Positions 9,296 to 26,815 of a DNA stretch of 64,000 nucleotides are shown here, in pieces. This DNA comes from a bacterium BMS3Abin06 (lineage in GTDB: Bacteria; Nitrospirota; Thermodesulfovibrionia; UBA6902), in contig BDSY01000037.1 in assembly GCA_002897895.1 (NCBI GenBank), forward strand, positions 7,306 through 71,305. Reading direction: 5' to 3'. The notes beneath the pieces are model-generated. The model did no database searches. It was not told the DNA's origin and was given only the letters and a program-made list of their open reading frames with translations. The stretch's first letter is position 1. Each line of letters begins with the position of its first letter. The position numbers and the translations under genes were made by a program.

Positions 9296-9337
9296 AAGAA
9301 TTTCTTTAAAATAAATTACTACTGTTTACCTGTAGAG

Positions 9338-10711: not shown

Positions 10712-11013
10712 TTCAGCCTGCGTATACTGAAAAATACAGCCAGGGCAGAGGTAGCAATTAACAATATTATTACCACCTGTGCATCGAATCTTTTGTAACT
10801 ATAGGAAAACAGGATTAAGGTGCTGACAACTACTGCAGCAATTGCTGCTATGATAAAAAAGATATTAATATTTTTTGTGAGAGATATTAAGAGATAACTT
10901 CCTGCACAGATAAATAAACAGAGCAAAATTAAAAAAAGTAAGAAGTCCAGGCTAAACCTCCTCCGGCTCCGTCCCTGCTTCCTGTTTCTTGCCCGGCTTA
11001 TCCTCATATCCAT
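10708..11013 (-). CDS. small membrane protein
   Basis: Two hydrophobic helices and an Arg-rich N-terminus. It overlaps the wzc 3' end, so it may be spurious. Confidence 0.25.
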   Translation of the reverse strand: MDMRISRARNRKQGRSRRRFSLDFLLFLILLCLFICAGSYLLISLTKNINIFFIIAAIAAVVVSTLILFSYSYKRFDAQVVIILLIATSALAVFFSIRRLK

Positions 11014-13015
11014 ATTTATAAGTCTGGTAATAAGCGTAAGGCGCTACTGCCCTGGTTTTAAGGTTGATCTGATTCAGAACCACTCCCGAGATATCGGCGC
11101 CCACTGATTCTAACTGGATTTTAGCCCGCAAAAGGGCATTCCTGGAGATCCTGCCAATCTCATAACATAGAACAACACTATCTACCCTGGAAGCTAAAAG
11201 GCTGGCATCAGTTACCGGGAGCACAGGGGGCGAATCAAAGAAAATAATATCAAATCTTTCCTTCAGCTCTTCCATCAAGTCTGTCCACATTTTGGATTCC
11301 AGAATTTCCGCAGGATTAACAGGCAAATCTCCGCTGGGAAGAATCCATATATTTTCAATTCCGGGAGGCTTTTTTGTTATTTCGTCGAGTCCCATATCTC
11401 CCAATATAAAATCCGATATATTCCTGAGGGCATCTTCCAGGCTTACAGATCCTGATATAAGTTCAGTCAGTCCCGGCTTTTTCTTTGTGCCGAATGTCCT
11501 GGCAATTACCGGTCGTCTTAAGTCAGAAGAAACCAGAAGTGTTTTTGCGCCTGTCTGAGCCACAGCTAAACCCAGATTTGTCATAAGTGTGGTCTTGCCC
11601 TCCTCTGGCCCTGCGCTGGTCAGGAGAATTGTCTTTTTAGACGGGCCAAGTTTAAGATTGGTCCGAATATTACGACAGGCTTCAGCTACAGAAGATTTGG
11701 GCTGATGATGGACAATCAATCGCATATATGCCTCCTCAGCCTTTTTCCTGCTGATGTGTGAAATTTTCTCCCTGTATTTAACTTCTTTTTTATTAAGTTC
11801 GCTCCGTGCAGAAGGAACCACTCCCAAAACCGGCAATTTGACTACATTTTCTATATCTTCAATAGTCCCGAGAGAGGTATCCAGTGCTTCAAATACAAAA
11901 GCAAGGGCAATACCCAGCAACAATCCCATTATCCCCCCTATAAACACATTCATTTTCCCCTGTGTATCTATAGGTGAGGCGGGCATAACTGCAGGGTCAA
12001 CTATGGAAATATCTCCAACTTTCTGCGCCTCTGTAATACGCGCCTCCTCAAGTTTTTCCTTAAACATCATGAAGAGTTTTTTGTTGACTTCAACCTCACG
12101 AGCTAATCTGCCATATTCCAGCTTTTGTTCGGAAAGACTTTTCCTTCGCGCCTCTAAATCTTTGCTTTGTTTCTCCTGCTGCGCCTTTAAATCTTTGATC
12201 TGTTTTTCCTGTTTTGCCTCTAAATCCTTAACCTGCTTTTCATGCTTCGTTTCCAGATTTTTTATCTCTTTCTTAAGCCGCACTATCCGGGGATGTTTAT
12301 CAGTATATCTCTGAAGGAGGGCAACTAATTCAAATTTTAAATCTACTAATTTTTTCTGAATCGGTTCGAGCAACCTCATATTCATTACTTCATCTGTTTC
12401 ATTAACTTTTTTAATTTCATCCGCTTTGTCCATTTTTTCTTCAAATTTGCTCAGACGATCTTCTGCCTTTTCCAGCCTGCTTCCTAATATTGATAATTGC
12501 TCTTCAATAAACCGGCGGGCGCTGCGGGCCTGCCTGGTCTTTTCCAATAAGTTTTCTTCCACATAAACAGAAGCTGCAGCCTCGGCTAAATCCCTTGCCT
12601 CTTTGGCGCTGCTTGCAGAGGCAGTGATTCTGATAATATTAGTTCGTTCGATTCTCTCGGTTTCTATGCTGTTCTGTAAGTTATTTACTACTTTGTGAAT
12701 CTCCGGGGTGGGAGTCTTATCATTTATTATTCTCAGACGCAAGGCCACCTTTTTCATAATTGGAAATCCCCTGATTATCCTGGTCTGCGATTCCATTACA
12801 TTGCCGGGACTACTTATAATCCACTCTGTAAGCAATCCGGCTATGGTCTTGCGCTCTTCTATTTTGACTGTAGTGGAAGCTTTGTATATCAGGGGAGGCT
12901 GGGTAGAAAGGAATGCACTGCCAATAGTTACAAGAAGAAAGGTTATAATTATGGTAAATTTCCTCTTGTGAAAAATCCTTAAATAATCCCTTAAATTTAA
13001 TTCATATTGCGGCAA
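10952..13015 (-). CDS. wzc: polysaccharide co-polymerase fused to a BY-kinase (Wzc / GumC-like tyrosine autokinase)
   Basis: N-terminal Wzz domain with a transmembrane segment, then a long coiled coil (repeated KDLEAKQEKQIKDLKAQQEKQSKDLE). Walker A LTSAGPEEGKTT. Tyr-rich C-terminal tail YAYYQTYKYGYEDK. Confidence 0.75.
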   Translation of the reverse strand: MPQYELNLRDYLRIFHKRKFTIIITFLLVTIGSAFLSTQPPLIYKASTTVKIEERKTIAGLLTEWIISSPGNVMESQTRIIRGFPIMKKVALRLRIINDKTPTPEIHKVVNNLQNSIETERIERTNIIRITASASSAKEARDLAEAAASVYVEENLLEKTRQARSARRFIEEQLSILGSRLEKAEDRLSKFEEKMDKADEIKKVNETDEVMNMRLLEPIQKKLVDLKFELVALLQRYTDKHPRIVRLKKEIKNLETKHEKQVKDLEAKQEKQIKDLKAQQEKQSKDLEARRKSLSEQKLEYGRLAREVEVNKKLFMMFKEKLEEARITEAQKVGDISIVDPAVMPASPIDTQGKMNVFIGGIMGLLLGIALAFVFEALDTSLGTIEDIENVVKLPVLGVVPSARSELNKKEVKYREKISHISRKKAEEAYMRLIVHHQPKSSVAEACRNIRTNLKLGPSKKTILLTSAGPEEGKTTLMTNLGLAVAQTGAKTLLVSSDLRRPVIARTFGTKKKPGLTELISGSVSLEDALRNISDFILGDMGLDEITKKPPGIENIWILPSGDLPVNPAEILESKMWTDLMEELKERFDIIFFDSPPVLPVTDASLLASRVDSVVLCYEIGRISRNALLRAKIQLESVGADISGVVLNQINLKTRAVAPYAYYQTYKYGYEDKPGKKQEAGTEPEEV

Positions 13016-13027
13016 TAAGCTCCTCCC

Positions 13028-13861
13028 TTAATCCAGGGTCTCCAACCCATGCAATGTCCAAACCCCCTTGGCTATAGGAGAAAGTATCTGGTCAACATAA
13101 TAATTCACATCTGCAATGAATTTCTTGGGAACGTAAACCATATCCTCTGATTGCAGGGTAATATTTTGACTCATGTCGGTTTTATTTATGGCGCGGCTTA
13201 AGTCAAGCCTCATACCTTCAGGGGTCTGAAGTCCACCCCTGACAAGTATAACGCTGGAGGGAACGGCATGCGGCGTAAAGCCATTTGCCAGGGCAATAGA
13301 CTCTAATACGGTTCTTTTTCCACTAACAGAGTAAACCCCCGGCTCATTTACTTCCCCTAAAACAATGACCTTTTTACCTCCCATCTTTCTAAGTGAGATG
13401 GAAACTATAGGGTACCTGATATATTCGCTGAGTCTCTTGCTGAGTTCCTCCCTCAATTGATCAAAGGTCAAACAGAAAGCAGGCACTTCTCCGGCTAAAG
13501 GAAAAGATATTTTTCCATCAGGACGAACAATTACCTCCTGTCTGAGATCGGCTTCTTCCCACACAGATATATACAGCACATCTCCCATATCAATGGTATA
13601 GTCCGGAAACCCGGATTCCCCCTTGACGATAGTGGCTGTTTTCGCTTTTGCTTCCTCTGCATCACCGGCAAGTGTTTGAGTTACAAATAATGTTGTTATT
13701 AACAAAAAAACGGGAAGGACAATCATTGCCCAATTGGAAGGGAGTCTACATCCAAATCCAATTAGAGATTTATCTCTGAACGGGGCGAACTTCTTAACGG
13801 GGTTTGTAATATTTTCTTTGAAATTTTCCACTTCTCCCCCTACAATTTTGAAGTGATTCAT
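13028..13861 (-). CDS. wza: polysaccharide export protein Wza (Poly_export + SLBB)
   Basis: N-terminal transmembrane/signal segment. DVLYISVWEEADL and GEVNEPGVY motifs typical of Wza/KpsD periplasmic exporters. Confidence 0.7.
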   Translation of the reverse strand: MNHFKIVGGEVENFKENITNPVKKFAPFRDKSLIGFGCRLPSNWAMIVLPVFLLITTLFVTQTLAGDAEEAKAKTATIVKGESGFPDYTIDMGDVLYISVWEEADLRQEVIVRPDGKISFPLAGEVPAFCLTFDQLREELSKRLSEYIRYPIVSISLRKMGGKKVIVLGEVNEPGVYSVSGKRTVLESIALANGFTPHAVPSSVILVRGGLQTPEGMRLDLSRAINKTDMSQNITLQSEDMVYVPKKFIADVNYYVDQILSPIAKGVWTLHGLETLD

Positions 13862-13887
13862 TCTAACCTAAAATTGAGCGATTATTA

Positions 13888-14796
13888 TTGTATAATAGCT
13901 ACTTAAGCTTTTATTTCATGGTATATTATCAAGAAACGGAACAAATTAATCAAGTGAAATATATATTAGAAGTAGATGGACTGAGCAAGGATTTTATCCC
14001 TCCTCTCTCTTTCAGAAAATTGATCGGGCTTGATTTCAGGCACAGAAGGCAGACCAGGGCGCTTGAGGATGTTTCATTTTCCCTTAAGAAGGGAAAGATA
14101 CTTGGTGTTCTCGGGCCTAACGGAGCGGGAAAGACCACCCTTTTAAAGATATTAGCTACCCTCATACTCCCGGATAAAGGCAGCGTGCTTATAAACGGCT
14201 GGAGCGTCGGCATTGATGACAACAAAATCAAATCCCTTATCGGGTTGGTCTCCTCACAGGAGAGGAGCTTTTACTGGCGGCTTACCGGGAGGCAGAATCT
14301 TGAATTTTTCGCGCTTATGTATGATCTGGAAAATCCGGGAAACAAAATTGAAGAATTGTTTGACCTCTTTGAGATAGATTACCAGGACAACCGCTTTGAT
14401 TCTTACTCCACTGGAATGAAACAGAAATTCGCCTTAATGAGAGGGCTGCTCAATGATCCGGGGCTTCTGCTTTTAGATGAACCGACCAGAAGTCTGGATT
14501 ACACAACATCCCTGAATTTCAGGAATTTCATAAAAGAGAACCTGGTCCTGGAAAAAGGAAAGACGGTTGTCTTCACCTCCCACAACATGGATGAGGCCAT
14601 GCATTTTTGTGACATATTTATGATACTGCATAAAGGGAGGCTTTATGCCATGGGGACACTGGATGAACTGCGAAAAAAGATAAATAATCAAACTGCGTCA
14701 CTGGGTGAGATATTTGTAAAATTGACTGAAGGGGAAAGCTTGACAAGAAGTCAGAAGTCAGAAGTCAGGAGTCAGAAGAAAAAGAGAAAAAACTAA
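13888..14796 (+). CDS. ABC transporter ATP-binding protein
   Basis: Walker A GPNGAGKTT, signature YSTGMKQK, Walker B LLLLDEPT. The C-terminal tail is encoded by tandem AGTCAGA heptamers. Confidence 0.8.
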   Translation: MYNSYLSFYFMVYYQETEQINQVKYILEVDGLSKDFIPPLSFRKLIGLDFRHRRQTRALEDVSFSLKKGKILGVLGPNGAGKTTLLKILATLILPDKGSVLINGWSVGIDDNKIKSLIGLVSSQERSFYWRLTGRQNLEFFALMYDLENPGNKIEELFDLFEIDYQDNRFDSYSTGMKQKFALMRGLLNDPGLLLLDEPTRSLDYTTSLNFRNFIKENLVLEKGKTVVFTSHNMDEAMHFCDIFMILHKGRLYAMGTLDELRKKINNQTASLGEIFVKLTEGESLTRSQKSEVRSQKKKRKN

Positions 14797-14930
14797 ACAG
14801 TTTCAAGTTCCAAAGCAATTCTGGATTCTGGATTCTGACTCCTGGCTTCTTTATCGGATATCTTAATAATACCCTGTGAACTATTACAAAATAATTTGGC
14901 CCTTAGTGACTTTATGGCGGAGCAGTTTTT

Positions 14931-15737
14931 ATGTTGAAAAAACCATTGGCTTTTGTAAAAAAAGATTTTCTGGCCGAATCCAGCTATAAGCTCTCTTTTA
15001 TATTCAGGATTTTTTCTGTTCTGACAAGTATCCTGAGTTATTATTTCATTGATAAGCTCTTCGGCAGCAGAATGGTCGGATATCTGGAAGAATTCGGAGT
15101 AAATTACTTCTCATATGTGCTTCTGAGCACGGCCTTTTTCAGTTATGTAGGGGTGGGGTTAGGATCTTTCTCCGGCAGGATCCGCTCTGAACAAGTACAG
15201 GGAACACTCGAAGCCCTGCTCATGACTCCCACAAAGATTTCGACTATTTTATTCTCCATGTCCCTCTGGAATCTGCTCTTTGCAACCCTGAATATGGTCA
15301 TCTATCTTATGGCGGGTAAATATTTATTCAAGATCAGCTTTGACAATATAAATATATTATCCACCTTTGTGATATTGATTCTGACTATTCTCTCTTTCAG
15401 CAGCCTGGGGATACTTTCGGCAAGTTTCATTATAGTATTTAAACGCGGGAATCCTGTGGGCTGGGTAATAAGCAGTCTTGAGGGGCTAATCGGAGGAGTT
15501 TATTTCCCCATTACCGTCCTGCCGGTATGGCTGCAATTTCTGGCGAAATTTTTCCCTATCACTTATGCTATCAGGGCCATTCAGCTGGCGGTTTATAAGA
15601 ATTACTCCCTCACACAACTCACAAAGGAGACAGGATTTCTGCTGCTATTTTCTATCTTACTCCTTCCTTTAAGCCTTTTCTCATTTAAATATGCCCTCAA
15701 AAAAGCCCGCCGGCATGGAAGTCTTGTTCAGTATTAA
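14931..15737 (+). CDS. ABC-2 type transporter permease
   Basis: 268 aa, about 6 membrane helices, immediately after the ATPase. Confidence 0.7.
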   Translation: MLKKPLAFVKKDFLAESSYKLSFIFRIFSVLTSILSYYFIDKLFGSRMVGYLEEFGVNYFSYVLLSTAFFSYVGVGLGSFSGRIRSEQVQGTLEALLMTPTKISTILFSMSLWNLLFATLNMVIYLMAGKYLFKISFDNINILSTFVILILTILSFSSLGILSASFIIVFKRGNPVGWVISSLEGLIGGVYFPITVLPVWLQFLAKFFPITYAIRAIQLAVYKNYSLTQLTKETGFLLLFSILLLPLSLFSFKYALKKARRHGSLVQY

Positions 15738-16873
15738 AAAAAATTTCTGACTATTCTCCGGTAATAATGAAAAGCATTTATGTTAGACAAAGGAAGAGCA
15801 AAATTATGCCCCATTACATAAGGCGAGGGGAAAAGTGTCCTGCCCATAAAACTTAATTTACTGAAGAAACCTTTCTCCATGGAAAGATAAATAAGATAAG
15901 ACAGCCAATAATGTCTTACACCTTTACGCATAAAGAGGGAAAATATCCTGTCTGAAAGGCTGAACCCGGCGGGTTTTAATCTTTCCAGTTCGGGGATTTC
16001 AAAATTCAACAAGTTAGAGGCAAAAGAGAGGGAATAAAACAAGACCGGGGATAAATTAAATCTTTCTGCCTCCCCGACAACTAACTCATAGTCAAGCCTC
16101 TCTTTATAGTGTCTTAAGGTTTCTAAAATGTCGGCAAGTAAAATCAGCCTGTCAAAGGAGTGAGTAAGGCTGTGCTGGGATAAATAAATCAAAAGATGCT
16201 CCGGAGCTAAAGTCAATGCCTCAATTCCACCTATCCTCGTTGCCCGGGCACATGACCAGATTCTTTCCATATCAATTTTATTTACAAGAGAATCCAATGG
16301 CCAGGTGGTATTAATAAGATGCCAGTGAAGATGGACCACAGCGCCGGGGGTTTTTTTTAGATAAACAAGTGAATTTACAGGGGAAGGCGGAGCAATACTC
16401 AGAGCATCCCGGTGGTTTGTGGTTGCAAGAAATCCTGAGCTCTTCAGGATTTTATCGACTTCAGAAAGATCATCTTTCCTTACAAGAATATCAATATCTC
16501 CTATCGGCCTAAAGGCGATATTTTTATAAATATTTTCAGCCAGAAAAATTCCTTTAAGGACAATCGCCTTTATATTTTCTTCATTAAAGATTTTAAGTAT
16601 CTTTTTTGTCTCCCCGCTGATTATCATATTTCTGGCAGAGTTTCTGTGATAGTAATTTCTTAATTGCTCTAAATATTGGGAGGGGACATAGGCCTTGAAT
16701 TCAGAGTTGTTTAAATGATAATAGACCAGACAGGAAACCCCTTCATTCCAGGACTTTTCAAGAATATAATCCCAGTCCGGACGGGTTTTTAATAATTCCT
16801 CTATCCGGCTTATCTCATACTTATCCGGATTAAGCCGGGAAAAAAGAAAAATCAGCCTGTCTTCCTTTCGCAT
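15734..16873 (-). CDS. nucleotidyltransferase-family protein (NTP_transf_5-like), accessory gene of the RiPP cluster
   Basis: Probable start is the internal Met MRKEDRLIFLF, which abuts the upstream stop. DIDILV and HLHWHL motifs fit the uncharacterised nucleotidyltransferases common in RiPP loci. Confidence 0.5.
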   Translation of the reverse strand: MRKEDRLIFLFSRLNPDKYEISRIEELLKTRPDWDYILEKSWNEGVSCLVYYHLNNSEFKAYVPSQYLEQLRNYYHRNSARNMIISGETKKILKIFNEENIKAIVLKGIFLAENIYKNIAFRPIGDIDILVRKDDLSEVDKILKSSGFLATTNHRDALSIAPPSPVNSLVYLKKTPGAVVHLHWHLINTTWPLDSLVNKIDMERIWSCARATRIGGIEALTLAPEHLLIYLSQHSLTHSFDRLILLADILETLRHYKERLDYELVVGEAERFNLSPVLFYSLSFASNLLNFEIPELERLKPAGFSLSDRIFSLFMRKGVRHYWLSYLIYLSMEKGFFSKLSFMGRTLFPSPYVMGHNFALPLSNINAFHYYRRIVRNFF

Positions 16874-16875
16874 AT

Positions 16876-17502
16876 TCACCTGTGGCCTGGTGTCCTGGAG
16901 GCTGAAGGGAGGGATGCCTCGTTTACAAACAACCGGAAAGGCCGTTGGATTGCCCATTGGCTCCTGCCGGGCATCAGCCTGCCGATTACACGCCGTCCCA
17001 TAATCAAATGAAATTCCGTTCCGGCAGGCCGGTCAAAACAAAGAACGCGGGTTTGCATCCATGCGGGAAGCCATCGTCTGAGGACGTGTGTTTGAGCCAG
17101 CCTGTGATAGAGGGGGTGGAGCAAAGAGGATATTTTTAAATCTATCATACGGATGGCCCTGATTCCCGATGAGTATAACCGGCCCCTCACCCCCCCGTAA
17201 ATCAACCGCTGCCTGTTTCCCCGCTGCGCCCGGATAACACGCCCGACAATGCTCTCAGGTCTGAGAATCCACGGGTCAATATATCTACTTCTGTCCCCCT
17301 GGGTTCTGATCCCTGTAGCATCAACAGAGATAACCCGGTGGACAACCATTCGGTTGCTCTCAGGAGAGGGGAAAACAATCACATCTCCACATTGAATTTT
17401 TTTTCCATTGCAAGGTAATACATGGAGTATATCAGAAGCCTTCAGAGCAGGGTTCATGCTTGACCCTACGCAGACTATGGTTTTACAGGTATCACCGCTC
17501 AT
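16876..17502 (-). CDS. S24/S26-family (signal-peptidase-like) serine peptidase, candidate leader peptidase
   Basis: VCVGSSMNPAL matches the GDSMxP catalytic-Ser motif. A beta-rich core is followed by a basic C-terminal extension. Confidence 0.5.
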   Translation of the reverse strand: MSGDTCKTIVCVGSSMNPALKASDILHVLPCNGKKIQCGDVIVFPSPESNRMVVHRVISVDATGIRTQGDRSRYIDPWILRPESIVGRVIRAQRGNRQRLIYGGVRGRLYSSGIRAIRMIDLKISSLLHPLYHRLAQTHVLRRWLPAWMQTRVLCFDRPAGTEFHLIMGRRVIGRLMPGRSQWAIQRPFRLFVNEASLPSASRTPGHR

Positions 17503-17503
17503 A

Positions 17504-18391
17504 CTAAAGAACCTTCTCAATCTCATCCCTGAACCGTCCGTCACGACTTAAGCGAAGGATATATGCAGGAACAGCTCTTGCCAATTTGCAGGCATTGTCA
17601 AAAATTTTCTTCTTAATCTCGCCCTCTTCCTCAGCGTTCAGATTCCTCCAGATAGGACGACACACTTCTGTAGATGAACGATTGATAAATACCGCAGCCT
17701 GTCCCTGACCTATGGGAACTGCTTCCTCGGATTCTGCCTGTTCTATAAAAAATATTGCAGTGAGAGGAGCGCATCGCTCAACATTCCATCTCCGCTCCGA
17801 CTGCTGCCAGAGATAATCACTCCATGTGGGAATGGGATGGGCCAGATAGCCTTTGCGATCATCTCGGACAATGAGGCTCTGATCATCGCTCAGGGCATGC
17901 CACGAACGGGGAAGTCGCCGGCATAAGGTAGATTTCCCGGAACCTCCCGGACCGGCTATTAAAATACCCTTCCCGTCTATCTCAATAAGCGCTGCATGAA
18001 CCGGAAGCCCTCCTGAGTCCATCATTTGTAAATAGATGATATACAGTGATGTCCACATCCTTACGATATCTAATTCGTGACTGCACTCATCCCCGATTTC
18101 ACAGATGATGTCGGACACTGTCCGGTGGGACCAGAACCGGAGTGCCCGGAAATCATGAGACTTCCACCCGCTTTCCGGAAAGTTCTCATCTATCTCCGGA
18201 AACCCGTCTTTTCCCGCCCCCCTCCGGACGAAAAAAATCCCCGGACAATTGCTGCGCCTGTCCCGTCCATTAGCCTTCAGTTCCATAATCGCGGCAAACT
18301 TCTCCACCCACGATATAGTATCAAGGGTGGACTTGATGAGCCGGCCACTGCCGTTGCCCAGTTTTAACATGTAGGCGGGTTTGGTCATCAT
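17504..18391 (-). CDS. HPr-kinase C-terminal-domain-related protein (ScmC-like)
   Basis: P-loop GILIAGPGGSGKST in an HprK-like context. It sits next to two radical SAM/SPASM genes and a PqqD gene, as the SynChlorMet cassette protein ScmC does. Confidence 0.6.
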   Translation of the reverse strand: MMTKPAYMLKLGNGSGRLIKSTLDTISWVEKFAAIMELKANGRDRRSNCPGIFFVRRGAGKDGFPEIDENFPESGWKSHDFRALRFWSHRTVSDIICEIGDECSHELDIVRMWTSLYIIYLQMMDSGGLPVHAALIEIDGKGILIAGPGGSGKSTLCRRLPRSWHALSDDQSLIVRDDRKGYLAHPIPTWSDYLWQQSERRWNVERCAPLTAIFFIEQAESEEAVPIGQGQAAVFINRSSTEVCRPIWRNLNAEEEGEIKKKIFDNACKLARAVPAYILRLSRDGRFRDEIEKVL

Positions 18392-18404
18392 TTATATCTT
18401 AACC

Positions 18405-18794
18405 CTATTTCAATGGAAGCCCGAGGATTTGGCATTCTGCTTCTTTTAGCACCTCTGTCAGAGAGGGCGCTATTGAGTCGTATACTTTGTTTTCTATGTG
18501 TTTATGGTGAGGAAAAGAAGAAACAGATTTGTGATGGGGGGCATTATCGTATCGAAATATCTCCTGATCTTTGGAGTTCATAAATTGATACCTGTACTTT
18601 TCTCTGCTGACTGCCGTATTACTATATCTTAGAAACTCAAAAACAGAAAGTTTAGAGCCGTTTTGAAATAACACGAGAACCTCAATGTAACCTGTTGTTG
18701 AACTGGTCAGGGTTAATTGGAATTGATGGCTGATTACTACAGGGGATTTTGTCAGTGCAAGTTCAATATCCGCGGCGTATCGGCTAACCAACAA
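18405..18794 (-). CDS. hypothetical His-motif protein (HHK...HHKH), possible toxin-like partner of the upstream small gene
   Basis: 129 aa. Overlaps the upstream 83-aa ORF by 11 bp. Flanked by the direct repeat described in the findings. Confidence 0.4.
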   Translation of the reverse strand: MLVSRYAADIELALTKSPVVISHQFQLTLTSSTTGYIEVLVLFQNGSKLSVFEFLRYSNTAVSREKYRYQFMNSKDQEIFRYDNAPHHKSVSSFPHHKHIENKVYDSIAPSLTEVLKEAECQILGLPLK

Positions 18795-19035
18795 GAACCT
18801 CTTCTAATGCCCTTTTTGTGGATTTCCAGTCGGCTAATCCCTGAGCCACGGCATACCATTTAAAAAAAACCTCATCATCCCCTGCCAAACCATTGTCAAA
18901 TCTTTGAAGAAACTCATCAGTTGTCCAGTGATACTGTTCCTCAAACTCTTTACATAAGCTTTCCAGGTGGTCTATGGCAAAGATGCACGTTTCCTTTTCC
19001 CTCTCAAGAGAGCGTATTACCTCTGCTTTTATCAT
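18784..19035 (-). CDS. hypothetical small protein, possible antitoxin-like
   Basis: 83 aa, acidic and helical, translationally coupled to the 129-aa ORF. Confidence 0.35.
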   Translation of the reverse strand: MIKAEVIRSLEREKETCIFAIDHLESLCKEFEEQYHWTTDEFLQRFDNGLAGDDEVFFKWYAVAQGLADWKSTKRALEEVLVG

Positions 19036-19076
19036 CCTTCACCCCCTGTCTGTGATTATCTGATGTACAAAGTATA

Positions 19077-19379
19077 TCATCTGTGATATTTAAAAATAAA
19101 GGAAAAATCTTCTATCTCTTTGCCGGTTAAAAAGGGCGGTTTGCTCAGGAAACTGCGACTTTCTGCACGCCAATAATATCTGTTTTGGAAGATTCTTCGC
19201 CATATATTTTCAGGCAAAGTAGCAGCAAACTTCTCCACCCACGATATAGTATCAGGGGTGGATTTGATAAGCCGGCCACTGCCGTTGCCCAGTTTTAACA
19301 TGTATGCAGTTTTGGTCATTTTGTCTGCTATCCCCGGTTTTTGAGCGCGCCGATCATGTTCAATCATCAAGCAACCCAA
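19077..19379 (-). pseudogene. duplicated 5' fragment of the ScmC-like gene
   Basis: MTKTAYMLKLGNGSGRLIKSTPDTISWVEKFAA is nearly identical to the N-terminus of the 17504..18391 product. The DNA repeat is about 19219..19320 versus 18283..18388, roughly 92% identical. Sequence diverges after the repeat. Confidence 0.55.
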
Positions 19380-19423
19380 GATTTCCCATTACTTGCCACA
19401 GTAACTTGGCTTCCAACGCCTCA

Positions 19424-19627
19424 TTATTCATAACTTGCAGCAGTAATTCCAACAGACTCACACACACCTGCAGTGGCACTCGTGCCGTTTGTTATACAGT
19501 CAGCGCTGGCAGTACCCCCTGCCTGACAGTTATTACTGGCAGCGCTACCGCTCAGACAGTCCGCCCCCTCAGCCGACCATTCCTCTTTGCCTGATAATAC
19601 TACCAAGCAAGGCTTTTCATATTTCAT
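19424..19627 (-). CDS. candidate RiPP precursor peptide
   Basis: 67 aa with a charged leader MKYEKPCLVVLSGKEEW. The core is rich in Cys, Ser, Ala, Gly and Thr, with repeated A-D-C motifs (GADCLSG, SADCITNG, AGVCESVG). Same strand, immediately downstream of the two SPASM maturases. Confidence 0.55.
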   Translation of the reverse strand: MKYEKPCLVVLSGKEEWSAEGADCLSGSAASNNCQAGGTASADCITNGTSATAGVCESVGITAASYE

Positions 19628-19658
19628 ATTATCTCCTCCATATAAGCAAAATCATCCC

Positions 19659-20747
19659 TCAACTTTTCCTTGTCAAACGAGTCTCGGGAAAGAGACCCTT
19701 GCGGTTTATCTCCTCGCAGAACCAGAATGGCGCCCAGAGAGACTTGCTCAGGTAATAATTCTGGGCAACACAACTTCCGAGACAGCGGCTCTTCATAAGA
19801 CATTCCCCGCAAATACCCTCAAGTCGGCCGGGAAGTCCCTCCCGGAGTTCCTTAAGAACAGGGCTGTCGTCCCAGATATCCTTTAGGCGATCTGCTGCCG
19901 CATGACCAAAGACAAGCTCGGGCACTGTCTCTCCAATGCCACACATGGCATAAGAGCCGTCAGCCAGAACCCCGAGAATGCCGCGGATCCCGCAGATACC
20001 ACACCCACCTCCATTATTGCCGAACATCCTGGAAAGGGGGCGGAAGGCGAGCGGATGGGAGTAGTGAAGACGCAGTTTTGTCAAAGGAGAAAGAACCTTT
20101 TCCACCCATTCTCCTAATTCCACAAGCTCTTCAATATCGAGGGTCTGCCCTGCATCATGCATCTTTTCGCCTCGCGCAGTGGGCTGAAGGATATTGAATT
20201 TGACAGAACCGCAGCCAAGCGATTCAGCAAGGTGTACCACTGACTTCATCTGATCTTTATTACGCGACATGATAGTCATAATGACCTGAGGTCTGAAGCC
20301 GGCATTTACCAGATTTCGAATGCCCTCCCCGGCTGCCTCAAAACAACCCGAAACCCCGCGCATCCACTCATGGGTTTCAGCATCCGCTGCATCCAGACTC
20401 ACCGATACAAAGGGATTCTTACACGCAGCCATCTTGAGCGCCAGACCTTCCGTGCAAAGAAGACCATTGGTCTCTACGATGAGCCGGAGGTCATTGGCCC
20501 GAATCTCATCAAGGATTTCATGAATCTGAGGATGCAGAAGCGGTTCACCTCCGGTTAACTTGACCCCGGAAAGCCCCAGGGGCTTTGCCTGCCTGATTAT
20601 GGAGCGGAAAAGCTCCGGAGAAAGAGAAGGGTAAGAACTGCTCCCGCCCTGGTATCCCGGGTCAATCCAGCAATGACGGCAGCGAAGGTTACACCCCTCA
20701 GTCAGATAAAAGTAAATCTGATTCAGAGAAAATTTACGGTCATTCAT
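19659..20747 (-). CDS. radical SAM/SPASM domain peptide maturase (ScmF-like)
   Basis: CNLRCRHC (CxxxCxxC) radical SAM cluster. C-terminal SPASM cysteines (CGICGI..., CGECLMKSRCLGSC). Confidence 0.8.
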   Translation of the reverse strand: MNDRKFSLNQIYFYLTEGCNLRCRHCWIDPGYQGGSSSYPSLSPELFRSIIRQAKPLGLSGVKLTGGEPLLHPQIHEILDEIRANDLRLIVETNGLLCTEGLALKMAACKNPFVSVSLDAADAETHEWMRGVSGCFEAAGEGIRNLVNAGFRPQVIMTIMSRNKDQMKSVVHLAESLGCGSVKFNILQPTARGEKMHDAGQTLDIEELVELGEWVEKVLSPLTKLRLHYSHPLAFRPLSRMFGNNGGGCGICGIRGILGVLADGSYAMCGIGETVPELVFGHAAADRLKDIWDDSPVLKELREGLPGRLEGICGECLMKSRCLGSCVAQNYYLSKSLWAPFWFCEEINRKGLFPETRLTRKS

Positions 20748-20810
20748 TTTTTATTCTTTTATACATGACGACTTATAAAATTTCGCATAATATGAAATTC
20801 TCCCAAAGTC

Positions 20811-20872
20811 TGTCATGCCGGCTTGTCCGGCATCCTTCCTGGAAGAAAGATTCCCGACAAGCGGGAATGACA
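20811..20872. repeat. hairpin MITE (family A), solo copy
   Basis: tgtcatgccggcttgtccggcatc...gattcccgacaagcgggaatgaca, the same inverted-repeat arms as the GIY-YIG element at 41774..42180. Confidence 0.7.
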
Positions 20873-20934
20873 CAACATGCGCAATAATTTATGACGCTCT
20901 GTATAGTTATCCTGATTTATCCTGTTAATCCCGT

Positions 20935-22038
20935 CTAAAAACTCTCCTCAGGAAGCCTCCCGCCATCTTCAAGAAACCTTCTCAGACAGGCATCCGGACT
21001 GGGATGATTCTCCTTGCCCAAAGTCGTGTAAGCCAATGCAGGACAATTGCCCGCACAATAAGGGATGTAATCACACCCCCTGCAAAACTCAAAATCACTC
21101 AGGGGAATACTGCGCCGCTCCCTCAGCCGCTCCAGCTCCGGATGATCCTGCCAGACCTCTCTGAGATTATCATTCCTGATACAACCCAGTTCCATATGGC
21201 CCAACTGAATGCATGGGACCATGGCACCGTCAGCGCGCACCGCCATCTTATTCCCCGGTCCGCCGCAACCGGTGAGATAACCCCTCCCGGGAATGCCTTT
21301 CTTCCCTTCACGACGGGCTTGTTCCATTATCAACCAGTTTTTCGCCTCAGCCAAAGGACCTGCGTTAGCGCTGATGCGTCCCTTGTATTTTTTGTTAAGC
21401 TTCAAAAGGGTCTTCATGGCAAGGGTACGCTCTGAAACAGTAAGCTGGACCTCTTCGGCATTTCTCCGGCAAAGTCCCATAAAAGAGGCAGCGTTGGTCG
21501 AAAAAGACGGGAGGCCGAGAGACTCCAGTAACAACCTTGCTACACCCTCAAGATCATTTACATTCTGTCTATGAATGGTAACACGCACAGACACAGAAAC
21601 ACCGTGCTTTCTCAGATGCTCAATCCCCTCCATGGCCCTGGAGAAATTACCTTTACCCCTGAAGGCATCGTGCGCCATTGGAATTGAGCTGTCGATTGAT
21701 ACCTGCACTGTGTTACATCGTCCGGTGGAAGCCAGAAATGCCGCCATCTCATCAGTAATCAATGTCCCATTGCTCAGGATACTGAATCGCATCCGGTTGT
21801 GAACTATCCCTTTGATGAGCTCACGCAAATCCTTCCGGTAAAAAGGCTCGCCTCCCTGAATACAGACATTCATCACCCCGCAGCGATTTAATTCCTCAAA
21901 GAATTTAAGCCATTCTTCCATAGGAAGATCATGGCCTGTATCCCCGGCGCTTGTAAAATGGCTGCAGTATTTGCAGCGCAGATTACAGCGGTTTGTAATG
22001 TCCAGATCAAGAGACCTCGGGGTACTCATTACCCTCAT
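20935..22038 (-). CDS. radical SAM/SPASM domain peptide maturase (ScmE-like)
   Basis: CNLRCKYC radical SAM motif. SPASM cysteines CRGCDYIPYCAGNCP. Confidence 0.8.
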   Translation of the reverse strand: MRVMSTPRSLDLDITNRCNLRCKYCSHFTSAGDTGHDLPMEEWLKFFEELNRCGVMNVCIQGGEPFYRKDLRELIKGIVHNRMRFSILSNGTLITDEMAAFLASTGRCNTVQVSIDSSIPMAHDAFRGKGNFSRAMEGIEHLRKHGVSVSVRVTIHRQNVNDLEGVARLLLESLGLPSFSTNAASFMGLCRRNAEEVQLTVSERTLAMKTLLKLNKKYKGRISANAGPLAEAKNWLIMEQARREGKKGIPGRGYLTGCGGPGNKMAVRADGAMVPCIQLGHMELGCIRNDNLREVWQDHPELERLRERRSIPLSDFEFCRGCDYIPYCAGNCPALAYTTLGKENHPSPDACLRRFLEDGGRLPEESF

Positions 22039-22044
22039 AAAATG

Positions 22045-22350
22045 TTACCCCTTTTTAACCTCGTAACCGGCCAACCCCCGTTCGGTTAAACTCCGGATAA
22101 AATCCTTAAGATCATCCTCAGCCTCATCGGGTATGTTCTCACAGCTCTCCCGCAGCTTTTCAAAAATGTCTTCCATCGTATGTGATCCGTCAAGCAGCTT
22201 CCAAATGAGTACACCTACAGGATTAAGACCGAAAGCATCCCCGGCATCAGGGTCAAAAAGGATTGCCCAGTCATCAAATTCCTCCCGAAGTACTATTAAC
22301 GGATTGGCTACAGGCATCTCTTTTTCTCCTGTTCCCATCTCTTCCCTCAT
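22045..22350 (-). CDS. PqqD-family RiPP recognition element protein
   Basis: AILFDPDAGDAFGLNPVGVLIWKLLDGSHTMEDIFEKL is a classic PqqD/RRE profile. Confidence 0.75.
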   Translation of the reverse strand: MREEMGTGEKEMPVANPLIVLREEFDDWAILFDPDAGDAFGLNPVGVLIWKLLDGSHTMEDIFEKLRESCENIPDEAEDDLKDFIRSLTERGLAGYEVKKG

Positions 22351-23372
22351 TCCTGTAAAACCTTTTCAATATAAACAGCCTGCTGTTTCCTTAAATCTAC
22401 AACCCTCTTATCTTTCAATTTCCGGTTATCACGGTCATACATTATATTAATTACAGGACGCGTAGGAAACCCCCGGTTAATTTTGGCAACCCTGCCTCTC
22501 TCTTTAGTGTTTAACCTGACAAGGCTTCCCATAGGGTAAGCGCCTATTACTTCCAGCAAAATCTTTATCAATTTATATTCAAAAGCCTTCTTTGCCTTTG
22601 ATAATTCCCGTATCGCGTCCATGGACATATACTTGTCACGATACGGCCGTGAATGGGTCATGGCTTCATAGCTGTCTGCCAGGCCCACTATTGCGGCATA
22701 TTTATGAACGGCTTCTCCCTTTAGCCCGTGAGGATAACCTGAACCATCCATGCGTTCATGTTCCTGAAGCGCAACCCGGACAGCTATTTCAGGCAGTTCC
22801 CTTGCTCTTTCCAGAATATCCGAACCGGTTTCCGGATGATTTTTGATTTCATTAAATTCTTCGGCGGTTAATTTCCCCGGCCGGTTGGCTAAATCCATAT
22901 ATTTTATCATTCCCATATCATGCAAAATAGCCGAGCTCCCTAACTCCATTAATTCAGCTTTATCATACCCAAGCCCTATACCTGTTTTTATAGATAAGAT
23001 ACAGACATTTACTTCATGGCTGTAGAAATCATGCTGTATTGAGCCTGTAGTTAATTCCAGCAAAGACTCATTATCCATGATCAATTGTTCAACTAACCTG
23101 TCTACACAGGATATGATCGACTTACATTCAAGTACATCATTATTTAATGCCTTTTCTTTTATCTCTTTCAGCAGAGATATTGCCTCTCTGTAAATTTCTG
23201 CGCATTCTTCCTTATTTAATACCCTGCCTCTCTCCATTACTACCGGAGCAATCCTGACTCCGGATCTGCCCGGTTCCCCGGGGACTTCCTGTTTTTTAAC
23301 TTTCGCCGGCCGGCGCTGTTGGAGGGACTCCTCTTTCTTAACTCCTTTTAAGATATCTGATATATTGACCAC
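22347..23372 (-). CDS. HD-GYP domain phosphodiesterase (c-di-GMP)
   Basis: HDMGMIKY and HHERMDGSGYP motifs. Confidence 0.75.
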   Translation of the reverse strand: MVNISDILKGVKKEESLQQRRPAKVKKQEVPGEPGRSGVRIAPVVMERGRVLNKEECAEIYREAISLLKEIKEKALNNDVLECKSIISCVDRLVEQLIMDNESLLELTTGSIQHDFYSHEVNVCILSIKTGIGLGYDKAELMELGSSAILHDMGMIKYMDLANRPGKLTAEEFNEIKNHPETGSDILERARELPEIAVRVALQEHERMDGSGYPHGLKGEAVHKYAAIVGLADSYEAMTHSRPYRDKYMSMDAIRELSKAKKAFEYKLIKILLEVIGAYPMGSLVRLNTKERGRVAKINRGFPTRPVINIMYDRDNRKLKDKRVVDLRKQQAVYIEKVLQE

Positions 23373-23385
23373 TCGCTATCTTCCC

Positions 23386-24216
23386 CTATCCTCTTATTTG
23401 GGCAGACCCAACAGGGATCTCTTCGAGGTCTTCAGCAACTTCCCTTATTACACCCCTGTTAACTTTATCCAGGCCTTCTGCAGAACCTACCAGCAGGGCC
23501 ATATCACATATATTGTTTATCCTTCGCGGTGTGCCTGCGGAATAACGGTAAATCTCCATATGTACATCTTCTGAAAATATCTCCTGCTGCGAGCCTGCCA
23601 TCTTTAAACGGTGCCGGATATAGCGCCCTGTCTCATCCTCCGTAAGAGCGCCGAGATGATACCTTACGGCAAACCTCTGTTTAAACTGAGGCAAATTATC
23701 TATTTTCTCTTTCAGCTCGGGTTGGCCCAGCAGTATAAGGGTAAGGAGGAAATCATCATTTAACTGAAAATTCAAAAGGAGCCTCAGTTCTTCAAAACTG
23801 TTTTTATGGCCTATGGTCTGGGCTTCATCTATAACTATAACCGTACCTTTATTATTATTTCTGTTTGCGTATAGAATCTCATTGAAATAATGCAGGAGAT
23901 TGATTTTGGATGAAGATGATATCCTGCTGTCCAATTGATAGACAATCTCTTTCATAAGGTTCAGAGGCGACAGCCTGGGATTAAAAATAAAGGCCAGTTG
24001 GTATTGTTCAGTGTTGAGCTCTTTCAGAAGAACCCTGCTTAAAAGGGTTTTTCCACAACCGGGTTCACCGGTTAAGATTGCCGCCCCTTTTCTTTCCCTG
24101 ATAGCATAAAGCATTCTTGAGAGCGCTTCTTCGTGTTTCCGTGAGTAGTAGAAAAAATGCGGGTCCGGTGTATTCTCAAATGGCTTCTGCTGTAATCTCC
24201 AGTATTCTTCATACAT
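23386..24216 (-). CDS. ExeA/GspA-like AAA+ ATPase
   Basis: Walker A GEPGCGKT, Walker B VIVIDEAQ, and the ExeA-type overall layout. Confidence 0.6.
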   Translation of the reverse strand: MYEEYWRLQQKPFENTPDPHFFYYSRKHEEALSRMLYAIRERKGAAILTGEPGCGKTLLSRVLLKELNTEQYQLAFIFNPRLSPLNLMKEIVYQLDSRISSSSKINLLHYFNEILYANRNNNKGTVIVIDEAQTIGHKNSFEELRLLLNFQLNDDFLLTLILLGQPELKEKIDNLPQFKQRFAVRYHLGALTEDETGRYIRHRLKMAGSQQEIFSEDVHMEIYRYSAGTPRRINNICDMALLVGSAEGLDKVNRGVIREVAEDLEEIPVGSAQIRG

Positions 24217-24406
24217 ATTATTATTGCCCGTTAATTATTCATAATAATATGCGCTATAAAACAAGATTGTCAAATTTTCGGGTCACTACTCAGGTCTATA
24301 ATTCCCCCCTTGATCGCCCTTTTCCAAAGGAGAGTCCTGAGCAGTTAGATTTTTGCAATTGATTTGATACAAAAGAGGGATAAAAAGTTTGTGCAATAAG
24401 GGGGGG

Positions 24407-25237
24407 CTAAAACGCATATGTCAGATTAACGACCCCAACCATAACCAGGGTCTTGCTCCAGGGGAAAACAGTATCTATTATTTTGCCGCTTTGTGTCATA
24501 TCCGGCTTTATTTCACTCTCATCAAGCTTAACAAGTTTATAACTGCCGCCTAAAGAAAGATTGATATTTCTTGTAATTTCACGCGCTACGCCGACACCTA
24601 TATCCAGACAGGTGCCGTTAGTGTCAAACCACATTCCTTCGTTATTGCTGTTTCTCACATCACCGTCAAAATAATAAGCAAAAGCAGCCCTTCCATCAAT
24701 GGCCCATTTGCCGGGCTTATACCCGAGACCAAGACCTCCGGCGGTTTTCCACAAACTGAAATCCTCGGTAATTGTAGCAGTAGACAGAGCAACGCCGTTT
24801 ACGACAAAATTTTTTCTCCTGAAATGCAGACCGTCCCATCCTCCTGATACATAAAGCCTGTAGTAAAAATTATTAAGACTGTTTCTGTAACCCAGACTGA
24901 TGTCGTAGAATTGACCAAAAATACTTATATCATTTGTTTGCTTCTCTATGTTATCTTCTCTCCATTTCTCTACATCCTTTAATCCAAGCGCCCAGTCGGT
25001 CGTGAATGCGGCAAAAAAGTTTTTCAGCCCGGCAAAAGAATACTCCCCCGAGACACCTAAGAGAATTGTGTCAAGAGATGTTTCCGACTCAATTTCGGTT
25101 CCAAAGGCATCGGTATCCTCCTCATATTTGATAACGCCGTAACCGCTGTGCACCCCAACTTCAAAACTGTCTGCATCAACATCACCTCCGATAAGAAAAA
25201 CAATTAAGGCAACAATCAGAAGAGCGATTTTTTTCAA
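24407..25237 (-). CDS. outer-membrane beta-barrel protein
   Basis: Signal peptide MKKIALLIVALIVFLIGGDVDA. Alternating beta-strand pattern and a C-terminal aromatic residue (LTYAF). Confidence 0.5.
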   Translation of the reverse strand: MKKIALLIVALIVFLIGGDVDADSFEVGVHSGYGVIKYEEDTDAFGTEIESETSLDTILLGVSGEYSFAGLKNFFAAFTTDWALGLKDVEKWREDNIEKQTNDISIFGQFYDISLGYRNSLNNFYYRLYVSGGWDGLHFRRKNFVVNGVALSTATITEDFSLWKTAGGLGLGYKPGKWAIDGRAAFAYYFDGDVRNSNNEGMWFDTNGTCLDIGVGVAREITRNINLSLGGSYKLVKLDESEIKPDMTQSGKIIDTVFPWSKTLVMVGVVNLTYAF

Positions 25238-25380
25238 ATGTTTATTCCTCCATTATTTATTTTTGTCATGCCCGAAGTCTTTAATCGGGTATCCAGAACT
25301 CATTGAAAAAACTGGATTCCCGCCCAACAGATCGCGGGAATGACGGCTCTATTGTTGAGTTTATACACAGACTCCAATTA

Positions 25381-26463
25381 TCAACGATTTTCCTGAAACG
25401 AATCAGCAACTGCACTATGCATTATTTTACCTTTATACGTATTCAGTGCAGTTTTTAAAGGAGTGTTCTCTGCAACATTCTTTATGCCGATTTTTGCGAG
25501 CATCTTAATATATTCAATCGTCCTGTTTGTAAGCGCCAATGTGGAAGTTCTCGGATATGCACCCGGCATGTTAGCAACAGTATAATGTATAACACCGTCA
25601 ACTGAATATACAGGATTAGTGTGAGTAGTCGGCTTTGTAGTCTCTACACATCCTCCCTGGTCAACAGAAACATCAACAATTACAGAGCCTTTTTTCATTC
25701 CTGATACGAGCTCTCTCGAGACCAGTTTCGGCGCCCTGGCTCCGGTTATTAAGACAGCGCCTATCAGCACATCTGCGTTCACTGCCTCTGCCTCTATATT
25801 TTCCGGAGTTGAGATTACGGTTTTTACCTTCCCCTCATATATTTTGTCTATTTGGCGGAGTTTCTCTTCTCCCCTGTTTATGACAGTAACGTCTGCACCC
25901 ATGCCGCAGGCAACCTGTAAAGCGCTCATACCTACAGTGCCTGCCCCTAAAATAAGTACCCGTGCAGGAGAAACACCGCCTGCGCCGGTTACAAGTATCC
26001 CCTCTCCCCCATGTATTTTCTGCAAATAATATGCAGCCATAACAGGCGCCATTTTACCTGCAATCTCGCTCATAGGTCTGAGGAGCGGGAGAGCTCCGTT
26101 TAATTCAAGAGTCTCATAAGCAAGGCCTGTGATATTTCTTTTCAATAACATTTTTACAAGTTCAGGGGCGGAAGCAAGGTGAAGAAAAGTAAATACTGCC
26201 TGTCCTTCCTGAAACAGGCCGTATTCCGGGGGAAGGGGCTCTTTTACTTTTACAATCAATTCAGAGTCCCTGAATAACCGGACTTTATCCGCTATCCCTG
26301 CCCCGGCCTGTTGATAATCCTCATCAGAAAAACCGCTTCCGCTGCCGGCTGATCTCTCAACTATTATCCGGTGCCCCTCTTTAACAAGTTCTCTTACACC
26401 GGCCGGCGCCATCCCGACCCTGTATTCATGTTCTTTTATCTCTTTTGGTATGCCGATTATCAT
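25381..26463 (-). CDS. ald: alanine dehydrogenase
   Basis: MIIGIPKEIKEHEYRVGMAPAGVRELVKEGH N-terminus. Rossmann motif LILGAGTVGM. Start is taken at the internal Met. Confidence 0.8.
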   Translation of the reverse strand: MIIGIPKEIKEHEYRVGMAPAGVRELVKEGHRIIVERSAGSGSGFSDEDYQQAGAGIADKVRLFRDSELIVKVKEPLPPEYGLFQEGQAVFTFLHLASAPELVKMLLKRNITGLAYETLELNGALPLLRPMSEIAGKMAPVMAAYYLQKIHGGEGILVTGAGGVSPARVLILGAGTVGMSALQVACGMGADVTVINRGEEKLRQIDKIYEGKVKTVISTPENIEAEAVNADVLIGAVLITGARAPKLVSRELVSGMKKGSVIVDVSVDQGGCVETTKPTTHTNPVYSVDGVIHYTVANMPGAYPRTSTLALTNRTIEYIKMLAKIGIKNVAENTPLKTALNTYKGKIMHSAVADSFQENR

Positions 26464-26479
26464 CAGGAATTTATTATGC

Positions 26480-26815
26480 TCAATCAAAATCCGGGAATAC
26501 TTTAACTTCAACAGGATTGCCGTTTTGAAGGGTATGGACCGCTGTTAATATCCCTCCCTCTACATATGAAAGACTGAAACTGCCGAATCCTTCTCTTACA
26601 AGGCGCTGGGCATCAGCAGGACATCCGCCTTCACAGCCTGCAACTCCCCTGATCATTCTTGGAATAAGTTTTTCCATATCGAGCGGGGCAAGATCAACGC
26701 CAAACTTTTTACCGAAGCCGATAATATCTTCTGTTACCCGGGCCACATCAAACCTGTGCGGATTTTCAATATTCAGAGATAAAGATTCTCCATTGATGCT
26801 GATATCAATATCCAT
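26480..26815 (-). CDS. hypothetical protein
   Basis: 111 aa, Cys pair GCEGGC, no confident family assignment. Confidence 0.3.
   Translation of the reverse strand: MDIDISINGESLSLNIENPHRFDVARVTEDIIGFGKKFGVDLAPLDMEKLIPRMIRGVAGCEGGCPADAQRLVREGFGSFSLSYVEGGILTAVHTLQNGNPVEVKVFPDFD

Follow-up and report, generated by a model that had tools for sequence, protein, structure and literature searches.

The peptide gene and its SynChlorMet cassette

The 64,000-nucleotide stretch of the genome of the bacterium BMS3Abin06 (Nitrospirota) analysed here, termed the window throughout, contains a small open reading frame (ORF) at 19424-19627 on the (-) strand, which encodes 67 amino acids plus a stop. We consider this ORF, with a probability of about 85%, to encode the ribosomally made ScmA-type precursor of a SynChlorMet cassette, a gene set for a peptide made on the ribosome and then modified post-translationally (RiPP). 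The translation agrees exactly with that quoted in a first-pass annotation made from the DNA letters alone, which had proposed the ORF as the substrate of two SPASM-domain maturases, and the frame ends in two stops, TAA TGA. Its description as an scmA-like precursor gene draws on this translation, on an alignment and profile of 17 sequences (A1), on a weak match to the ScmA model TIGR04252, and on synteny.

A Shine-Dalgarno sequence, GGAGGAG, is read from the sequence at 19633-19639 on the same strand, 5 nt before the ATG (19627-19625), where the annotation had suggested looking for a ribosome-binding site (RBS). The stop codon of scmF ends at 19659, also on the (-) strand, leaving a 31-nt spacer (32 when counted to the A of the ATG, in keeping with the 32 bp previously given for the distance from the second maturase); this spacer contains nothing but the RBS, which suggests co-transcription of the peptide gene with scmD-scmE-scmF. 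Promoter-like signals do not exceed shuffle expectation, and neither an intrinsic terminator nor significant RNA structure is predicted 3′ of the peptide gene (z = 0.52). The peptide consists to 57% of small residues (A11, S9, G8, C5, T5) and has no hydrophobic segment able to serve as a Sec signal. Its Cys residues number five, not six as formerly counted, and lie at positions 7, 24, 34, 44, and 56; four of them belong to the core, whereas Cys7 occupies a variable leader position.

The surrounding cassette is complete, with ScmD, ScmE, ScmF, and ScmC all far above their NCBIfam cutoffs and all encoded on the (-) strand. ScmF (19659-20747; TIGR04251, 3.4e-185; 615 bits, cutoff 400) and ScmE (20935-22038; TIGR04250, 3e-194; 645 bits, cutoff 400) are radical S-adenosylmethionine (SAM)/SPASM enzymes, as also indicated by Pfam domains (Radical_SAM and SPASM in ScmF), and both possess an intact CX3CX2C motif at the start and a full Cx2Cx5Cx3C SPASM motif at the end. 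Their Radical_SAM domains begin at residues 14-15, leaving no fused RiPP recognition element (RRE); without a leader-binding domain of their own, they would depend on ScmD (22045-22350; TIGR04248, 7e-40; PF05402), a stand-alone PqqD-type protein predicted to bind the leader. ScmC (17504-18391; TIGR04249, 1.6e-87, covering model positions 1-292 of 292) is a P-loop protein (GPGGSGKST) with a fold like that of phosphoenolpyruvate carboxykinase (PEPCK) and HPr kinase. It also matches HprK-related kinase A (1.8e-8), and its AlphaFold2 model (predicted local distance difference score, pLDDT, 90.8; predicted template-modelling score, pTM, 0.89) has PEP carboxykinases as best fold matches (E ~7e-8, query TM-score 0.45-0.54), a fold class that includes HPr kinase. 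By exact-sequence look-up, ScmF corresponds to the public records GBD96016.1 / HDH13540.1 and ScmC to GBD96011.1 / HDH13545.1.

Conservation and linkage to the cassette

The linkage of the peptide gene to the cassette was approached from three starting points. A scan beginning with ScmF, with one genome per species, yielded 15 true ScmF loci, of which 13 were assessable, and 12 of these carry a peptide ORF of the same leader and Cys-repeat design; conservation beside ScmE/ScmF homologues, which the first-pass annotation had set as a test of its proposal, is thus observed. In L002-L008 and L010-L012, the small ORF lies directly 3′ of scmF and has a (K)Y-E-K-P-x-[ILV] N-terminus and regularly spaced Cys. 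L001, which comes from an Aerophobetes metagenome-assembled genome (MAG) and whose ScmF is the nearest of all (81% identical), has two tandem, much shorter ScmA-like genes (9297-9449 and 9587-9712), and in a Verrucomicrobiota MAG (L009) the ScmA-like gene (5732-6454) is found upstream of scmD. The remaining ScmF loci are uninformative or degraded, owing to an N-run (L013), a contig end (L014), or frameshifted genes (L015).

Searches beginning with the peptide lead to the same cassettes. A word-indexed homologue search with the window peptide gave no match; an exhaustive phmmer search of 1.84 billion representatives returned nine relatives (E 1e-5 to 8e-4), and a search with the A1 profile returned 43 clusters, unnamed or labelled "hypothetical" and none with a Pfam domain. 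All relatives from both searches are 53-198 aa long and share the same design. Among eight homologues with assessable context (P0006, on a 915-bp contig, was excluded from this count), seven reside in Scm cassettes, six of them adjoining ScmF on its ScmC side: P0029, P0042, P0017, P0024, P0032, and P0012 directly follow the second radical SAM gene (ScmF), and ScmC (PF27840) is next in five, the contig of P0042 stopping ~450 bp past the peptide in an unidentified gene fragment. In the seventh case (P0002, L026), the peptide gene stands between ScmC and the S26 peptidase gene. The usual order is PqqD, two radical SAM genes, peptide, ScmC, S26 peptidase, NTP_transf_5, and ABC genes, and the peptide stays with the cassette even where this order has changed, preceding scmD in L009 and following scmC in L026. 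Beginning with ScmC, both nearest relatives with usable contigs (L027 and L028; ScmC 64-65% identical) have a peptide-type ORF in the gap between ScmF and ScmC (2921-3103 and 4135-4329, respectively); these ORFs were left uncalled by gene callers, and in L028 a 42-aa ORF was called instead.

The design is also specific. A pattern that describes just the core has one match in the 64-kb window, at the peptide ORF. When all six frames of 364 kb of related loci were scanned, the pattern had two off-target matches (L012 13118-13441; L017), and all other matches are ScmA-type ORFs, located in or beside an Scm cassette in 14 loci, together with the orphan P0044 (L019/L020). Codon-level comparison of seven locus pairs gave ratios of nonsynonymous to synonymous differences (pN/pS) of 0.27-0.62. 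Judged from conservation, controls, and pN/pS together, the 67-aa ORF is a real, conserved protein-coding gene that is under selection and accompanies the cassette through changes of gene order.

These data bear directly on the possibility that the frame is open merely by chance, in a spacer between genes, and that the true substrate lies elsewhere. Short ORFs are indeed abundant, 117 of at least 40 aa overlapping 20 kb of the window, so that ORF length by itself carries no weight; moreover, no curated family is matched above cutoff, and the exact sequence is absent from the protein collection searched. Against this stand the strong RBS, a leader and repeat design kept in dozens of cassettes under purifying selection, and the observation that neither pattern is matched by a second ORF of the window. 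The sole other ORF between cassette genes (20751-20873, 40 aa) is devoid of the motifs, and the spacer that holds it is absent in L001. A chance frame is already contradicted by synteny, and we regard it as scarcely credible. The 40-aa ORF in the scmE-scmF spacer was likewise rejected as a substrate, being unconserved and without motifs.

Several loci show features of their own. The tandem L001 peptides have 1-2 Cys each and share a terminal C-x-N-G-S-L-P, and a repeated sequence lies upstream of each gene; the L009 peptide contains a poly-Gly spacer of ~70 residues between its first C-x2-G unit and five later units. L013 (3981-11558; Deltaproteobacteria) holds two convergent ScmD-ScmE-ScmF sets ~2.9 kb apart, with the masked N-run between them. 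The P0044 gene (L019 8001-8186 / L020 1616-1801) is preceded by three small unannotated ORFs; L019 and L020 are overlapping, oppositely oriented parts of one 36.5-kb contig that bears this gene twice, possibly through an assembly artefact.

Leader and core design

The family signature consists of a K-Y-E-K-P-x-[ILV] leader followed by C-x2-G-x2-A repeats of ~10 residues. In a leader profile of 65 peptides, Pro is present in 100%, Tyr at Pro-3 in 98%, Ile/Leu/Val at Pro+2 in 98%, Leu/Phe at Pro+5 in 96%, Gly/Ala at Pro+13 in 86%, and Thr at Pro+12 in 36%, and the distance from Pro to the first core Cys is 14-20 residues (mode 17). Statistics on 303 core Cys from 62 peptides place Gly at C+3 in 86% of units and Ala or Pro at C+6 in 51% and 10%, respectively; the Cys-Cys interval is 10 in 125 of 241 cases, 11 in 68, and 9 in 29. 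Four core Cys per peptide is the mode (37 of 62), the range being 3-10, with 1-2 in L001.

In the window peptide, the predicted leader comprises residues 1-19 (19571-19627, (-) strand), a boundary taken from the register of lasso leaders that may extend to residue 22. Within it, A1 and the leader profile identify the Y-x-x-P-x-L motif as Y3-E-K-P6-C-L8 (19604-19621, (-) strand), which is predicted to be bound by ScmD. The core contains four C-x2-3-G-x2-A repeats, namely C24LSGSAA, C34QAGGTA, C44ITNGTSA, and C56ESVGITA (19439-19558, (-) strand), at spacings of 10, 10, and 12. Repeats 3 and 4 have a one-residue insertion (C-x3-G), also seen in P0007, P0009, and P0044. The window residues invariant in A1 are P6, G27, C34, G37, C44, G48, C56, and G60, with Y3 conserved in at least 90%. 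The short motifs listed in the first-pass annotation therefore hold in part: the four core Cys do fall within them and their C-x2-G portion is conserved, whereas the proposed ADC and GVC frames are not a feature of the family. The Scm leader also shares the lasso register, Y(-17)-x-x-P(-14)-x-L(-12), with a small residue at -1 in 86% and Thr at -2 in 36%.

In principle, a small peptide with this architecture could share the location of the cassette yet remain unmodified and act as a Cys-rich protein of metal binding or redox function, since regularly spaced Cys amid Gly, Ser, and Ala might chelate metals and one homologue occurs without radical SAM neighbours. We consider this very unlikely, because an invariant Y-x-x-P leader combined with a stand-alone PqqD-type binder is a hallmark of a modified precursor, the leader is conserved whereas the core is hypervariable except for its Cys and Gly, the repeat copy number across the family varies from 1 to 10, and linkage to ScmD, ScmE, ScmF, and ScmC is strict.

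Membership in the ScmA family

At E ≤0.01, no NCBIfam or Pfam model matched the window peptide. Under a relaxed threshold, TIGR04252 (ScmA, SCM_precur_ScmA) was found at E = 0.022, with residues 3-42 aligned to positions 1-40 of the 49 in the model, and 10 of the 17 aligned family members match the same model (best E = 4.3e-9), indicating that a precursor family for the SynChlorMet cassette had already been catalogued. When ten relatives were scanned singly against TIGR04252, none reached the cutoff (11-28 bits, best 28.1), including peptides from proven cassettes, which implies that the curated model covers a narrow part of the real family. Resemblance to ScmA extends to the start of the model at Y-E-K-P, the same first Cys/Gly repeats, and the same cassette (ScmC, ScmD, ScmE, and ScmF); the differences are the C-x3-G form of repeats 3 and 4 and the Cys in the leader. 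As in L018 and L022-L025, the peptide is encoded between scmF and scmC, in a cassette with ScmC, ScmD, ScmE, and ScmF, and its leader and Cys/Gly repeat core are homologous to those of the peptides in other cassettes. Position and homology, then, place the window peptide in the ScmA family, as a divergent member that scores below threshold. The cassette is catalogued, without a chemical characterisation found in the literature searched. The earlier proposal of a precursor for two SPASM maturases gains support from cassette synteny reached from three starting points, from the RBS, and from the weak TIGR04252 match.

Several observations weigh against this assignment. The window peptide scores 15.0 bits with TIGR04252, below the curated cutoff of 35. 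Within 8 kb of P0044, radical SAM, PqqD, and ScmC genes are all missing. The exact 67-aa sequence and a 60-aa alternative start are absent from a collection of 15 billion proteins; eight tested neighbouring ORFs or alternative starts are likewise absent from it, the 83-aa partner gene of the toxin described below and two start variants of a ScmC fragment are present, and accession numbering leaves one unidentified coding sequence (GBD96015 / HDH13541) between that fragment and ScmF. Compared with lasso leaders, the window peptide has Ser18 instead of Thr at -2 and its Gly is one residue off -8. The toxin-antitoxin insert between the peptide gene and scmC could alter downstream expression. The type of modification is proposed by pure analogy, ScmF being equally close to AhbD/NirJ-type enzymes, MftC-type enzymes, and thioether synthases. 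Finally, a literature search found no paper on the SynChlorMet cassette, its families, or PF27840, all acronym matches being unrelated.

The insertion and the wider surroundings

Between scmA and scmC, the window contains an insertion (18405-19379, (-) strand) that is not part of the pathway. It comprises a TumE-family toxin gene (18405-18794; PF20126, 3.6e-22), an 83-aa partner gene (18784-19035), and a duplicated 5′ fragment of scmC. A 105-nt direct repeat (18284-18388 / 19215-19319, 90% identical) brackets the insert and duplicates the scmC 5′ end, leaving an ORF for an N-terminal ScmC fragment of 80-100 aa (19077-19379), which is publicly annotated as a hypothetical protein. The 931-bp insertion is not present in the nearest relatives, L001, L027, and L028.

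This arrangement raises the possibility that the cassette is decaying here, the insert uncoupling the downstream genes so that the peptide is made and not fully matured. The scmC 5′ duplication with its truncated fragment and the restriction of the insertion to this genome among its nearest relatives are in line with such a course, but every cassette ORF is undamaged and covers the full length of its model (ScmC at 1-292 of 292), the region has no predicted intrinsic terminator, and the insert is on the same strand, making read-through possible. Decay is accordingly judged improbable.

The scmE-scmF spacer (20748-20934, 187 nt) contains hairpin-like inverted repeats, e.g., TGCCGG-ACAAG-CCGGCA and CATTCCCGC...CGGGAATC; the corresponding spacer in L001 is only ~37 nt long, and the window spacer may be a small repeat element.

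Downstream of ScmC, three sets of genes complete the usual order. An S26-type peptidase of the SipW/archaeal type (16876-17544, (-) strand; TIGR02228, 54.7 bits against 51.85; PF10502) is a candidate leader peptidase; it shows the Ser...His-Arg signature (GSSMNPAL, VHRV), is free of membrane segments, and adjoins ScmC in most loci. It is followed by an NTP_transf_5 nucleotidyltransferase-like protein (15734-16957, (-) strand; PF14907, 7.5e-50), whose gene recurs in L018, L021, L022, L024, L027, and L028. An ABC ATPase (13888-14796) and an ABC-2 permease (14931-15737), recognized by Pfam and together spanning 13888-15737 on the (+) strand, form a candidate exporter, and the same pair is found beside the cassette in L027 and L028. 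One ScmC homologue, P0165 (494 aa), carries a fused methyltransferase domain of the SAM-dependent kind (PF13847, PF13649, PF08241), a fusion that hints at further tailoring in some cassettes.

Beyond the ABC genes, a Wza-like Poly_export/SLBB protein is encoded at 13028-13861 and a Wzz/GNVR chain-length/tyrosine-kinase-like protein at 10952-13015; with these polysaccharide export genes adjoining the ABC genes, the cassette sits at the edge of an exopolysaccharide locus. On its other side, the cassette is flanked (22347-24216) by an HD-GYP-type HD_5 protein and an AAA_22 ATPase, the latter resembling the XrtA/PEP-CTERM-associated ATPase TIGR03015 (3.5e-71, below cutoff). Homologues occur beside other Scm cassettes, both genes in L018 (14173-15992) and the ATPase only in L022 (8388-8912), which suggests that the association is recurrent.

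Proposed maturation pathway

Maturation would begin with binding of the Y-x-x-P-x-L leader (Y3/P6/L8) by ScmD, which, like the B1 protein of lasso systems, would present the core to ScmE and ScmF. The closest solved structures to ScmD are the lasso leader-binding proteins TbiB1 (5v1u, E = 5.5e-7) and TfuB1 (6jx3), its second-best NCBIfam match is the lasso PqqD chaperone family, and YxxP is the characterised recognition sequence of lasso RREs (PMC12710340). From this kinship and precedent, together with the lasso register of the Scm leader, ScmD is expected to bind Y3/P6/L8.

ScmE and ScmF would then act on the repeats, forming one small Cys-derived thioether ring per repeat, of the sactionine or ranthionine type, and the second radical SAM enzyme would add a second kind of link or modification. 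A small thioether ring in each repeat is, by analogy, the likeliest product, at a little less than even odds, and it is preferred because Cys is the sole invariant reactive residue and because the nearest solved enzyme is a thioether synthase. Neither ScmE nor ScmF has a close solved structure, the nearest being SkfB and PqqE: among solved relatives, the thioether-forming SkfB ranks first for each of the two, followed for ScmE by PqqE.

The peptide might instead be a substrate of non-thioether chemistry, such as C-C or C-O crosslinks, epimerisation, conversion of Cys to formylglycine, or decarboxylation, with the Gly at C+3 perhaps serving as a site of hydrogen abstraction. The best non-self families of ScmF are AhbD/NirJ-type decarboxylases and MftC, while those of ScmE include WgkB (which forms a Lys-Trp crosslink) and PqqE; the presence of two distinct radical SAM enzymes implies no fewer than two reactions, and the Gly at C+3, present in 86% of units, is more conserved than any candidate acceptor residue. 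Both the likeness of ScmF to these families and the conserved Gly leave other chemistries possible. On the other side, Cys alone is invariant among the reactive residues of each repeat, the nearest solved structure for either enzyme is that of the thioether synthase SkfB, and tandem short Cys repeats are the design of known ranthipeptides such as freyrasin (PapA/PapB). We assign non-thioether chemistry an appreciable chance, short of that given to thioether rings.

After thioether formation, ScmC and then the NTP_transf_5 protein would decorate Ser or Thr, by phosphorylation followed by addition of a further group. In lasso clusters, the kinase PsmK phosphorylates Ser and the nucleotidyltransferase-like PsmN then adds a hexose (PMC9266682), and the ScmC/NTP_transf_5 pair may, by analogy, act in the same manner. 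The absence of a membrane segment would suit the S26-type protein to the role of a cytoplasmic leader peptidase, and the small residue conserved at Pro+13 points to a cut at about Ala19 to Ala22. The anchorless enzyme would thus cut the leader near this residue, and the adjacent ABC system would export the product.

A more tentative and somewhat doubtful proposal is that Scm represents a chemically new RiPP class, in which a lasso-type toolkit of leader, RRE, kinase, and nucleotidyltransferase is combined with two SPASM enzymes that would install an undescribed modification on each C-x2-G-x2-A decapeptide unit. Such a modification may be, for example, a Cys-to-Gly or Cys-to-Ala link accompanied by a second radical modification.

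Significance of the assignment

The cassette spans anaerobe-rich lineages, including Desulfobacterota-type and Nitrospirota MAGs, Aerophobetes, and Verrucomicrobiota, and ScmC alone forms 143 clusters at 90% identity; no paper found by the literature search gives a product or function for it. The identification of the window peptide is a correct and fairly routine annotation call. What it adds is the recognition of a systematic miss, in that the curated ScmA model and ordinary gene callers overlook most precursors (e.g., those of L027 and L028 and the window peptide), and of a leader, RRE, and accessory toolkit that mirrors lasso systems. A family signature is now defined by the leader, the 14-20 residues from Pro to the first core Cys, and the repeats of ~10 residues, and the lasso-like leader and binder offer a direct handle for binding and co-expression work.

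Comparison with known systems

The ACGX and GeoRSP systems were considered and rejected, as their maturase models score far below cutoff and neither has a family among the peptide matches. Ranthipeptides and sactipeptides (e.g., freyrasin, SCIFF, subtilosin, and SkfA/SkfB) share with Scm a Cys-containing core, a SPASM radical SAM maturase, and PqqD-type leader recognition. Scm differs from them in having two separate maturases, a stand-alone RRE, and a C-x2-G-x2-A repeat without a conserved Asp/Asn/Thr acceptor. The peptide matches none of the curated precursor or maturase models of these classes (SCIFF, PapB, AlbA, SkfB, StsB, CteB-type), and ScmE/ScmF are far below the cutoffs of the corresponding enzymes (PapB, 88 vs 340 bits; AlbA, 64 vs 850; SkfB, 80 vs 300; StsB, ~100 vs 625). 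From genes alone, the peptide is not assignable to either class.

The PqqA/PqqD/PqqE and MftA/MftB/MftC systems resemble Scm in that a short precursor peptide is served by a separate PqqD-type chaperone and by a SPASM radical SAM enzyme that has no RRE fused to it. PqqA and MftA, however, have a single modification site and yield cofactors, whereas Scm has a repeat core of variable copy number, two maturases, and additional peptidase and exporter genes.

Likeness to lasso systems includes the leader register and the binder as well as the HPr-kinase-like and nucleotidyltransferase-like genes, comparable to PsmK/PadeK and PsmN, and one member of the peptide family weakly matches lasso_leader_L3. 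A lasso identity was nevertheless rejected: neither a lasso cyclase (Asn-synthetase-like C protein) nor a B2 protease was found among the scanned ORFs at 10952-26511 or in the related loci, which argues that the product is not a lasso peptide. The Scm core also lacks the macrolactam acceptor design, and the cassette has radical SAM enzymes and an S26-type peptidase instead. Taken together, the Scm leader and its binder look as if they were borrowed from, or are shared with, lasso systems.

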